64,000 nucleotides of DNA from a virus (lineage: Duplodnaviria > Caudoviricetes), in the IMG/VR virus record IMGVR_UViG_3300028591_000011, positions 32,001-96,000 of that record, one strand, 5' to 3'. The first letter of the stretch is position 1. Each line of letters opens with the position of its first letter. The notes below the pieces were generated by a model. That model saw only the letters and a program-made list of their open reading frames with translations. It made no database searches and had not been told where the DNA came from. Below are positions 31,208 to 57,991 of the stretch, in pieces. The position numbers were made by a program, and so were the translations under genes.

Positions 31208-34200
31208 ATGTTTTGTCCTTATTATAAAAATAGAGAAGTTTTTGATGGCTTCAACGAAATTGTATAGGCATTTGGTGGTGACCCTTTGACAGAGGAAGAA
31301 TTTAGGTCCAGTGAGCTGAGAAATCAGCGAACTGGTCCTAATTATTCTGCTATGGAAGCCGCATATATAGTATACGATAGGAACAACGGAAATATGTTGG
31401 ATTTTACTCCTGATGGTCAACCTTCTATACTCTTTCAAAAGTTGTTAGATTATTATGGAGATAGAAATTCTGCAATAATCGCTAAAAGTAACGCTTATTC
31501 TGATGAATTTCTTGATAAGAAGAACTGGCTTGCCCAATATGATGATGCGCCAGACGGTGTTACAAAAACAGTTCAACAAACTGAACCAGATATATCAGAC
31601 GTTGTAGATGGTTATATAAACCCTTAGGAAACAGATGTTGCCATAAACAATAAAAACATAGAAGGCTCTATAAGACGCGCATCTGTAGAGTCTATAGGCG
31701 TAGACAATTATACCAAGTTGGCGAACGGAGAAACTGTTTCTTCAAAGAATATAATACAGAGCTTAAAAAAAGCGTTTGCATTTTCTATTCAAAATAGCAT
31801 GTTGGCGGATATATTCGAAATACATGATATACCTGTGACATTTTATTCTGATTTGGATAACGTTACGTTAATGACTAGCGAGTTATTATCCGATGGAACT
31901 TCTGTTATAAGAATCAATAGGAACTTGATAGGAAAAGTTACGCAAGATTATATTTCTGAAGCGTTTTTGCACGAGATTGTACATTCATTAACAATGTCCG
32001 CTTTTAGACTAAAAGCTACTCCAGAATAGGTATAGTTAGTAAACAGTACTAACAAGTTACTCAAATCGTTACGAAAAGAATATTATGGGAATTATAGTGC
32101 TTATAATAATGTAGACTCCATAACGCATGCTTTAAAAAACAGTAGAGAATTTGTATCAGTATTCATTACTGATGCAGAAGCTAGAAATGAATTATTTAGT
32201 ATTGCAAAACAACTAGATGATAAAAAATATGGAAAGCATTTAACAAGACTTGTAAATTTTATAAATTCCGTAACATAGTTTCTTGTAAACAAAAATCTAA
32301 TAAACTCAAATCAAAGCTTATTAAACAGGTATCAAAAAATTGTATATGACTATCTTAATAACAGACAAATGATAAAAAACGGAAAAGTACTATCAAAAGC
32401 CGAAGTTAAGAAGATATAGAGTTAGTTGGATAAGCGAGCAATTTTAAATGGAGAAATATTAGATAGATTCAAACACGCTCAGTTGTTAGTCAATGTAATA
32501 GAAACTAACCCGTATATTATAAAACGTAGACTAAATAAAAAAGAAGCTAGCGCAGCTTTACCTACTGAAAGTTTATATAACAATATTATAGATGGTATAA
32601 AAATAAGAATAAACGCATTACGTTCTTCTGATTTGCAATAGGTGCAAAAAAATAAGCTAATACAGGAAGCTAGAACGTTTGTCGATATGTTTGAAAACGA
32701 AGGAATTGTTAGATACGTAGCTATATCATCTATGTTATCTTAGGTTATACCTAATTTGTTAGATGACATAAAACAGCTTAGGGCTGCTGTTAACGAAAAT
32801 GCTGTCATTGATTCTAAATCTGTAAATTACCATATACATAGTAATTTTGGGTTATATAAAAATATAATTCAGTCTTTGTCTACAATGTTTACAAGTGAAG
32901 ATTATATTACAGATTTGGTAAACGAATATAATTCCAAACAGATAAGTGAATCCAATAAAATTAGCAAAGATGACGCTTTAGAGTTAAAACAGACAATTTC
33001 TGATATATCTTCTGTTATTACAGACGGTCTAGCTTTATGTGAAAGGTTGTTGAATAACAGCGGGTATTCCATATTAGAAGAAACTGGTAGAGCGGTAAAT
33101 AATCCGGACATAGAATAGTTTTTATCGAATCTAGAAACAGATCCGTCTATAGTATCTACCGGAATAAATGGAGTAGAGGCAATGTTTTCTGCCGCAGATT
33201 CCATGGATAACATAATTGTCAGAACGATGGAAAATATGCTAAATAATGCATTGGTTGGTGCTGACAATAAAGTTACCGACAGAGCGTCTGAGATTATGAA
33301 GATTATATCTAAAATCAATCCTCATGACATCAAACTTTTATACGAGTTCGACGAAAAAGGTAGAACTACTGGATATCTTGTACGAGATAGAAATTTCGGA
33401 AAAATGTATAAAGATTATGATGAAGAGATATAGAGAATAAATCAAATAATAAAAGACAAATATAATCTTACCAACCTCGATGTAAAATTAAACAGAACAG
33501 CTCCATATCAAGAAGATGCTAGAATAGAATGGAATCAGATGGTAAACGCTTGGAAAACTAAATACACAGAACGTAAAATGCTACCAAAATATTATGATCT
33601 GTGGAATGGTGTATCCACTACGGCAAAAAGTGCAATCGGAGCAATTAATACCGAGATTTCATTATTGCTACAAAAACCAGGTGTTGTAGACGAACTAGGA
33701 CATAGGCATTTGGAACTACTTACAGATGATGAATTTTGGTAGTATCAATAGCTTTCTATACAAAAGAAAGTGTTACGTAGCGATAGAGACGAATTTGGCA
33801 GATTAAAGGATCCCAATAGCGAAGAATACAAAATAGCAAAAGAATTGTAGACTTTATATTCTGAGTTGTATAGCGATTCTAAAGACACCGAATACGATAC
33901 AGAAGCTTGGTAGTCTGAACTTGATTATAATATAGATAACGTTTGGGGAGGAAGAGAAGAGTATAATAAATATTTGAGAGGCGAAGAAAACGATTTTGAT
34001 ATAAAAGCGTTTAGAAAATGGCATTCTAAGAATTCTGTCTATAGACTAAAATAGGACGATGAAGGTAAAGCTATCGTATATAAACTCATAGAACAAGAAT
34101 TAGGAATGGTTGTTGATTATGGAGAAGAGGTCGAAGATTTGCTTCAGCAACGTAGAGAGATATACAATTTATATAGAGGAGTCAATTCGGATATACTCGG

Positions 34201-56930: not shown

Positions 56931-57071
56931 TGCTCCCACTTAGGTAGGGAGCACACCCGATCACGCCGCCTCCTTGAGGCCAGTGTAATCAACAACGTTT
57001 ATGTTGCCAGTTAATTTATATCAAAGCGCTTAATGTATTTACTTCCGCTGCTGTCTAATACATTCAGGCCC
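56931..57071 (-). ncRNA. ssrA: Permuted tmRNA, coding piece (5' acceptor strand + tag reading frame)
   Basis: Begins GGGCCTG...GACAGC. Resume context TAACT-GGC. Tag frame 57008..56961 encodes GNINVVDYTGLKEAA*, with the stop in a hairpin (GATTAC/GTGATC, GCCTC/GAGGC). Confidence 0.85.
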
Positions 57072-57233
57072 TTATAGTTCATGAAAGAATGCATTAGCAT
57101 TACTTTCGTAATCATCACCTCCATAATAACCTTCTACAGTACCTAATGGAGATATTGTACCTTTTTTAAGAAGATCTTCAAAAGCTACGGCATCTTTATC
57201 GTTTACTTTATATAACACTATATATCCTTTCAT
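57072..57233 (-). CDS. 53-aa ORF inside the tmRNA intervening segment
   Basis: MKGYIVLYKVNDKDAVAFEDLLKKGTISPLGTVEGYYGGDDYESNANAFFHEL*. A-rich leader; its TAA directly abuts G1 of the coding piece. Confidence 0.6.
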   Translation of the reverse strand: MKGYIVLYKVNDKDAVAFEDLLKKGTISPLGTVEGYYGGDDYESNANAFFHEL

Positions 57234-57247
57234 GATTTTGAATTTTG

Positions 57248-57300
57248 TGGACCTGGAGGGTATGTCTCCCTCGTCCAAACAGCTTACCTCATACACGCTA
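57248..57300 (-). ncRNA. ssrA: Permuted tmRNA, acceptor piece (5' boundary uncertain)
   Basis: ...AGCGTGTAT...GCTGTTT-GGAC-GAGGG-AGACATA-CCCTC-CAGGTCC-A. CAGGTCC pairs with GGGCCTG, giving G3:U70 and discriminator A. Confidence 0.85.
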
Positions 57301-57309
57301 AGATTGGAA

Positions 57310-57430: not shown

Positions 57431-57698
57431 TATATTTTTCTTAGTCCAACAGTTTATTCTGGGACACGCTAAGATTTCTTTAGAGATGAATGCTTGTGAC
57501 AAATTCTGAATATAACATTGTTAATATTCTATAGCATTCAATAGTGAACTCTACAATGATCAGTCGTAGAATTCGATTTAAGGCTATTTACAGGCTCTAC
57601 AATCGCTTATTACAGCTTTTGTGGTCAGCTAATCCACTCAAGTACATAAAAACGATTGTAGAGCTTTATTTGGCCTTCAAAACAAACAGTGATACAAT

Positions 57699-57991
57699 GG
57701 CTCTAATAGGCTCTTGTGTATATGTTTCCAGCATTCTTGATATACTGTGCAGGTTTAACTCTCATATTATTTACCCGGCTCTAATAGGCTCAAACACAGC
57801 AATGTGATCTAAATGGGATATAGTTTATTCTCCGTATCTTCAGAGCTCGACATCCGAACTGGCTCTAATAGGCTCTTGTTCGACATGTTAATTCATGTGC
57901 CCGAGATAACCCCATCTCTCGACTTTAAAATACGTAATATTCGTAGTCCCTATGGATCCGTGATCTCATTCCTATTGGCTCTAATAGGCTC
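57699..57991 (-). repeat. Array of four exact GAGCCTATTAGAGCC 15-mers in non-coding DNA
   Basis: Plus-strand ggctctaataggctc at 57699, 57777, 57861 and 57977. Confidence 0.9.

Follow-up and report, generated by a model that had tools for sequence, protein, structure and literature searches.

Do two short minus-strand segments of a crAss-like phage genome, carrying the two ends of a tRNA-like stem in reversed order, form a transfer-messenger RNA (tmRNA), and is this copy of the gene still active? We addressed this question in a window of 64,000 nucleotides, the whole stretch of DNA analysed here (positions 32,001 to 96,000 of IMG/VR virus record IMGVR_UViG_3300028591_000011), which forms part of a complete, 105,735-bp virus record bounded by direct terminal repeats. 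The original prediction, made from the letters of the window, read the locus as a circularly permuted two-piece tmRNA in a crAss-like phage. The first part of that reading stands on homology, covariation and conservation of the tag frame, which place the locus within a family of such genes; the second agrees with the DNA polymerase (PolB) of the window genome, which is 75% identical to that of crAssphages cr272_1 and cr273_1 (Suoliviridae, Oafivirinae). We are therefore confident that the locus represents a phage-encoded, circularly permuted two-piece tmRNA gene belonging to a lineage of Suoliviridae/Oafivirinae-type crAss-like phages.

Anatomy of the locus

The gene order on the minus strand of the window is acceptor piece, intervening segment, coding piece and tRNA-Met (Table 1). 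The permuted order had been predicted with the same coordinates, as had the acceptor stem, which consists of 7 bp with G3:T70 (G3:U70 in RNA) and discriminator A, and the GGC resume codon that opens a 15-codon tag. CCA is not encoded at the 3' end, where the discriminator A is followed by CAA. The stop codon had been placed inside an H5-like hairpin, and this detail required correction: TGA lies 7 nt upstream of the terminal hairpin.

The RNA is about 200 nt in size, in line with the predicted minimum of about 195 nt. The pseudoknot ring had been described as largely absent, and the layout bears this out: the stretch from P2b to the resume codon is only about 16 AU-rich nt long, which leaves no room for PK1, and a single covarying hairpin with an invariant loop follows the stop codon. 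A small pseudoknot is possible between GGUG before the terminal hairpin and UACC in the hairpin loop, both of which are invariant. Because pseudoknots are reduced in other minimal tmRNAs, their reduction here does not disqualify the locus as a tmRNA gene.

Table 1. Features of the candidate two-piece tmRNA locus, in window coordinates
Feature	Position	Strand
Partial duplicate of acceptor-piece start, 32 nt	57475-57444	minus
Insert, 139 nt, between duplicate and full acceptor piece	57443-57305	minus
Acceptor piece of two-piece tmRNA	57304-57248	minus
P2b strand AGCGT+GTAT, acceptor piece	57299-57291	minus
P2a strand CTG-T-TTG, acceptor piece	57282-57276	minus
GGAC, acceptor piece	57276-57273	minus
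T arm GAGGG-AGACATA-CCCTC	57272-57256	minus
Non-canonical T loop AGACATA	57267-57261	minus
Acceptor 3' strand CAGGTCC	57255-57249	minus
Discriminator A	57248	minus
Intervening segment, 176 nt	57247-57072	minus
ORF of 53 codons in intervening segment	ATG 57233, stop TAA 57074-57072	minus
Coding piece	57071 to ~56928	minus
Acceptor 5' strand GGGCCTG, coding-piece 5' end	57071-57065	minus
P2a strand CAGCAG, coding piece	57053-57048	minus
P2b strands, coding piece	57038-57035 + 57029-57025	minus
Resume codon GGC	57008-57006	minus
Tag ORF GNINVVDYTGLKEAA, 15 sense codons	57008-56964	minus
Tag stop codon TGA	56963-56961	minus
Terminal hairpin, covarying, invariant loop	56953-56931	minus
tRNA-Met (CAT), 3 nt past coding-piece hairpin	56927-56853	minus

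Detection by standard tools

Both detection programs proposed with the original prediction gave a split outcome for the window. Under default settings, ARAGORN called the tRNA-Met alone and no tmRNA, while at 80% stringency (-ps80) it reported a permuted tmRNA at the locus. At the Rfam gathering threshold, no tmRNA family reached its cut-off in the window. In E-value mode, the permuted model RF04321 (tmRNA_permuted) aligned over its full length to 56961-57302 with 32.1 bits, below its curated cut-off of 47 bits, with an E-value of 1.5e-4 when 1 kb was searched and 3.8e-6 when the genome was searched. Atypical copies such as that of the window thus escape default annotation tools.

A family of relatives in crAss-like phages

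Two motif scans of IMG/VR returned 26 loci, which reduce to 21 distinct ones; most of the contigs that carry them are about 100 kb long. The same two-piece layout was found in 22 distinct relatives on crAss-like contigs. A blastn search of a phage collection matched crAssphages cr272_1 and cr273_1, with the feature 'transfer-messenger RNA, SsrA' under both matches; the RefSeq record of cr273_1 annotates a tmRNA, and, judging by the feature label of the match, that of cr272_1 apparently does too. ARAGORN reported the cr273_1 gene as permuted with the tag GNINVVDYTGLQEAA, of which the window tag shares 14/15 residues, and RF04321 scored it at 46.2 bits. Whether the gene had already been catalogued, a point raised by the original prediction, thus has a double answer: a homologue is annotated as tmRNA, and the window copy is passed over by default detectors. 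Elsewhere in the family, 13/15 loci scanned passed the RF04321 cut-off, at 49-71 bits, and ARAGORN in default mode reported a permuted tmRNA in 6/6 relatives run.

The intervening segment ranges from 17 to 176 nt across the family, that of the window being the longest. A tRNA or a tRNA-like element begins no more than about 120 nt past the coding piece in each relative examined, and often directly past it. A shortened tRNA-like structure (GAGTGAG...CTCACTC acceptor plus T arm) takes the place of the full tRNA directly past the coding piece of L004, L009, L010 and L016, and also at L001:3113-3181; this element is possibly a processing signal only. A further permuted tmRNA was observed in cr131_1 (Cacepaovirus simiae, NC_055902, ~90662-90902; L081:1410-1773), with a shorter tag, GNYNVVDYTHVA and a stop, and an RF04321 score of 35.3 bits, under the cut-off.

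A bacterial source of the lineage was also considered and set aside, as two motif scans of species genomes gave no counterpart. The tag and hairpin motif was absent from 185,579 prokaryote species genomes (one genome per species), and the matches to a looser acceptor-piece motif in the species genomes were unrelated standard tmRNAs (Acidimicrobiales) and high-GC fragments. These negative scans do not by themselves establish the independent permutation put forward in the original prediction.

Covariation and selection on the tag frame

Covariation across crAss-like homologues and conservation of the -AA tag had been named as checks on the original prediction, and both were carried out on an alignment (A1) of 21 distinct intron-free sequences. 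The covariation model comprised 34 pairs in the T arm, acceptor stem, P2a, P2b and terminal hairpin, and each of these helices covaries. In this alignment, 94.5% of pair cells are paired, versus 28-47% when the partners are slid by 1-3 columns, and both sides change in 21/34 pairs. The covariation score was 0.376, compared with 0.135 for shuffles, and 0/500 shuffles scored as well. G3:U70 is kept in every one of the 21 sequences, while acceptor pairs 5:68, 6:67 and 7:66 covary. P2b, whose AGCGT-GTAT strand had been predicted correctly, is 88-100% paired, and a small hairpin over the resume codon covaries as well. The P2a helix was shifted in register: the pairing first proposed, AGACAGC/GCTGTTT, is 88.6% paired with 3/6 pairs changing on both sides, whereas the Rfam-like CTG-T-TTG/CAGCAG is 96.8% paired with 6/6 pairs changing on both sides, and this register replaced it.

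The tag is kept in the family as an in-frame coding sequence of fifteen codons with the consensus G[ND]x[NK][VIL][VA]DYT[GD]L[KQ]EAA. Its variable columns are distributed 4/3/10 over codon positions 1/2/3, and the stop codon is TAA or TGA in 21/21 sequences and never TAG, demonstrating purifying selection on the tag frame.

These results bear on two other readings of the locus. One is that it is a chance resemblance, a set of tRNA fragments or an attachment-site remnant, an idea suggested by the likeness of its 3' end to that of the neighbouring tRNA-Met. The two-piece layout is, however, conserved and covarying in more than 20 phage genomes, and the RF04321 scores of the family together with the covariation refute this reading, to which we assign almost no credence. 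The other is that the RNA does not tag and instead serves as a decoy, either sequestering host SmpB or AlaRS or blocking the host tmRNA. The minimal structure without PK1 fits such a role, and so does the tag end EAA, given that tmRNA tags usually end in hydrophobic-AA. The strong codon-position signature, the in-frame conservation and the invariable use of TAA or TGA as stop are, on the other hand, features that a decoy would not need. There is a precedent in the CDS-less tmRNA of mycobacteriophage DS6A, which PMC11915505 cites as having been reported to be a decoy or host-tmRNA blocker; for the present locus we judge a decoy role improbable, and a tmRNA that encodes a tag is the reading retained.

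Group I introns in the T loop of relatives

In three relatives, the permuted tmRNA gene carries a group I intron in its T loop (L010:3540-4768, L016:7057-8174 and L009:6171-7304, minus strand). The introns scored 86.8 (L010), 81.6 (L016) and 65.9 (L009) bits against Intron_gpI, and they interrupt the T loop at position 2 (L010, L016) or position 8 (L009). The exon junctions of all three obey the -1 U and omega-G rules, and the P1 guide matches the T stem (GAGGGT/GCTCTC in L010, GCGGT/GCCGC in L016). Each intron contains a reverse-strand ORF of 165-210 aa in which HNH-like motifs were read by eye.

The window has a partial duplicate and an insert where these three relatives have the intron. The 3'-exon context ...CCAGGTCCACAAA is common to the window and L009, L010 and L016, and the GACATA of the window T loop equals the first bases of the L016 intron P1 loop. 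An intron scar produced by simple deletion, from the guide sequence to the T stem, was rejected, as it predicts a 12-nt loop compared with the 7 nt observed. A link between the odd loop of the window and intron gain or loss, or endonuclease attack, is a low-confidence lead.

Rearrangement and remodelled loops in the window copy

The upstream duplicate copies the acceptor piece from its start as far as GGAC (32 nt) and includes neither the T arm nor the acceptor strand. Its surroundings are the ancestral upstream context, and it matches the L010 5' exon at 37/38 nt. The possibility that it is a fossil of the original permutation was rejected: it is missing in all 19 of the intron-free relatives aligned, and its match to the L010 5' exon is 97%. 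The 139-nt insert is closed by a 12-bp stem, with a fold z-score of -2.4. An Rfam search gave no match for it, and none of the fetched loci contains a homologue. Homology to L010 ends exactly at the GGAC of the upstream copy and resumes at the CCCTC of the T stem, and the 183 nt of the window in between occupy the position of the T-stem strand and group I intron of L010. This combination of a partial duplication and a foreign insert indicates a recent rearrangement at the locus. The full acceptor piece of the window is co-adapted to the window coding piece, a sign of continued constraint.

The window copy also has an altered elbow. The T loop AGACATA is unique to the window, as 22/22 relatives have a TTCGAAT-like loop, and the D-loop analogue reads GT in the window and GG in 22/22 relatives; compared with the canonical elbow of a TTCRANY T loop and a D-loop GG, the window has neither part. 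The T loop had been described at the outset as non-canonical, which is accurate for the window and proves peculiar to this genome. These non-canonical loops lower our confidence in the activity of the window copy, not in its homology, and because both the T loop and the D-loop are remodelled, that activity may be reduced. A search of IMG/VR and JGI metagenomes for a second genome with the AGACATA loop found none, and a scan with the subclade-specific tag returned only known contigs and one truncated contig.

These peculiarities raise the alternative that the family is functional and that the rearrangement at the window T loop destroyed the T-loop/D-loop elbow, so that the gene is now in decay and may owe its retention solely to the ORF of the intervening segment or to the tRNA that follows. 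Loops found nowhere else in the family, an allele for which these searches gave no second genome, an orphan copy of 32 nt followed by 139 nt of foreign sequence exactly at the site of the L010 T-stem strand and intron, and a locus that default detectors miss would all be in keeping with decay. Yet all helices of the window copy are intact, and relative to its nearest relative, L018, two pairs are compensated (T-A versus C-G in P2a; A-T versus G-C in P2b). The stem sequence of the terminal hairpin is unique yet perfectly paired. The tag ORF is intact and differs from that of L002 by synonymous changes only, and the T arm keeps its stem and a loop of 7 nt. The D-loop change from G to T could even allow pairing with A56 of the AGACATA loop, although this is a single case. 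It also speaks against decay that AlaRS charges minihelices and does not need a T loop. We therefore regard a disabled copy as rather unlikely, and we lean, with some uncertainty, towards the view that the window copy is still active.

An ORF in the intervening segment

The 53-aa ORF of the intervening segment ends in a TAA that directly adjoins G1 of the coding piece. A homologous ORF of 59 aa occupies the same place in the intervening segment of L010 (L010:4444-4620). The two share 33/53 aligned residues, with an in-frame 6-codon indel and a dN/dS of about 0.5. The 53-aa ORF matched no Pfam or PHROG family, and tblastn and protein database searches returned no relative except that of L010.

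These observations on introns, loops and ORF can be drawn together in one scenario, which we put forward as a single claim and regard as rather unlikely. Oafivirinae-type phages would own an independently permuted, essentially pseudoknot-free tmRNA lineage that has become a battleground for selfish elements: HNH-bearing group I introns would home into the T loop of the family, the window allele would be the survivor of such an attack, in which compensated remodelling of the T and D loops (U19:A56) removes the homing site, and the intervening segment would have been co-opted to encode a small protein, with the RNase P site marking the end of its mRNA.

Genome context

TAG-recoded late genes were part of the original prediction, and the window supports them. 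Reading TAG as Gln opens giant plus-strand late ORFs, one of them of 5,524 aa with 95 TAG codons, and these ORFs open only with TAG as a sense codon; a Table 4 reading does not open them. The late-gene block concerned spans 7111-36886 (plus strand), and the early and middle genes around the tmRNA (minus strand) are open in the standard code. The window genome encodes a suppressor tRNA with anticodon CTA, and 7/12 complete relatives yielded either a CTA suppressor tRNA or a gene homologous to that of the window, a count that stands without a control set. A link between the tmRNA and TAG recoding is neither shown nor excluded.

Two further observations concern the neighbourhood and the suppressor tRNA. 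In G003, the record that contains L009, about 1 kb interrupts the gene homologous to the CTA suppressor tRNA of the window (C1:82468-82501 + 83497-83537). The break falls in the anticodon loop, after position 34 and before position 35, and the gap is probably another intron. Upstream of the tmRNA, at 57476-57895 of the window (minus strand), lies a conserved non-coding region of about 400 nt that is present in 17/17 loci (alignment A3). It contains three or four hairpins whose stems seem, by eye, to covary; the loops of these hairpins show GAGCC-N3-5-GAGCC, and another hairpin has a CTGATCA loop. The region may be a separate structured RNA, a regulatory array or part of the precursor.

Proposed mode of action and significance

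In anatomy and in the selection acting on it, the family behaves like a functioning two-piece tmRNA. We infer the processing, charging, SmpB dependence and tagging as follows. The acceptor piece, intervening segment, coding piece and tRNA-Met would be transcribed as one minus-strand precursor. RNase P would make two cuts, one at G1 (57071) and the other at the tRNA-Met 5' end, the second presumably setting the 3' end of the coding piece, while the acceptor piece would be trimmed to A57248 and receive CCA from the host. The 7-bp acceptor stem, P2a and P2b would then hold the two RNAs together, and host AlaRS would charge the RNA via G3:U70. Together with SmpB, which would have to come from the host because the phage genome contains no SmpB gene, the charged RNA would enter stalled ribosomes; translation would resume at GGC, append (A)GNINVVDYTGLKEAA and stop at TGA, and ribosomes would thereby be freed during infection.

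An abundant group of gut phages has its own compact tmRNA lineage, about 200 nt in size, with no room for PK1 and flanked by tRNA. Studies of tmRNA structure and mechanism could use it as a naturally occurring minimal form. The tag end EAA and the stop codon that is never TAG raise the question of how a TAG-recoding lytic phage benefits from its own ribosome rescue.

Comparison with known systems

The closest annotated relatives, cr273_1 and cr272_1 (NC_055904/NC_055903; Suoliviridae, Oafivirinae, Buhlduvirus), have the same permuted order as the window, a tag that is one residue off (Q for K), G3:U70, the same terminal hairpin loop and a downstream tRNA-Met. Unlike the window, they have the T loop TTCGAAT and a D-loop GG, an intervening segment of 76 nt without an ORF, and no upstream duplicate; acceptor pair 5:68 is G-C in these phages and C-G in the window.

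Two-piece tmRNAs are textbook knowledge for three bacterial lineages. As in the window, those of Alphaproteobacteria, Betaproteobacteria and Cyanobacteria (RF04321; RF01849-51) are encoded with the 3' half of the tRNA-like domain ahead of its 5' counterpart, and the window type would share with them the joining of the two RNAs by acceptor and P2 helices, alanine charging, by analogy, and a tag ORF. The window lineage differs in that it is carried by phages, is much smaller (about 200 nt), lacks room for PK1 and has at most one small putative pseudoknot, and has a coding piece bounded by a tRNA.

A 2025 tmRNA database paper, for which RefSeq viruses were scanned, tabulates standard, permuted and intron forms, and no combined permuted and intron form (PMC11915505). 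L010, L016 and L009 share the T-loop group I intron with the intron-form tmRNA genes described there, and they differ in being permuted and intron-bearing at once and in having their endonuclease genes on the opposite strand; at that site the window itself shows just an altered loop and lacks an intron. The family thus includes permuted forms with introns and a protein gene within the intervening segment, neither of which was found in the literature searched, and that search likewise returned no paper on the crAss-like tmRNA lineage or its missing pseudoknots.

Phage two-piece tmRNAs are known, for example in methylophage Melnitz, and aquatic samples account for 50 of the 53 two-piece forms that ARAGORN called in a phage collection from 2021 (PMC9004378). 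Like the window genome, phages of the Melnitz type are lytic phages with their own permuted ssrA and no smpB. The Melnitz type is alphaproteobacterial-type and marine, whereas the lineage of the window comes from crAss-like phages that inhabit human and animal guts, with a separate tag family, DYTGL[KQ]EAA.
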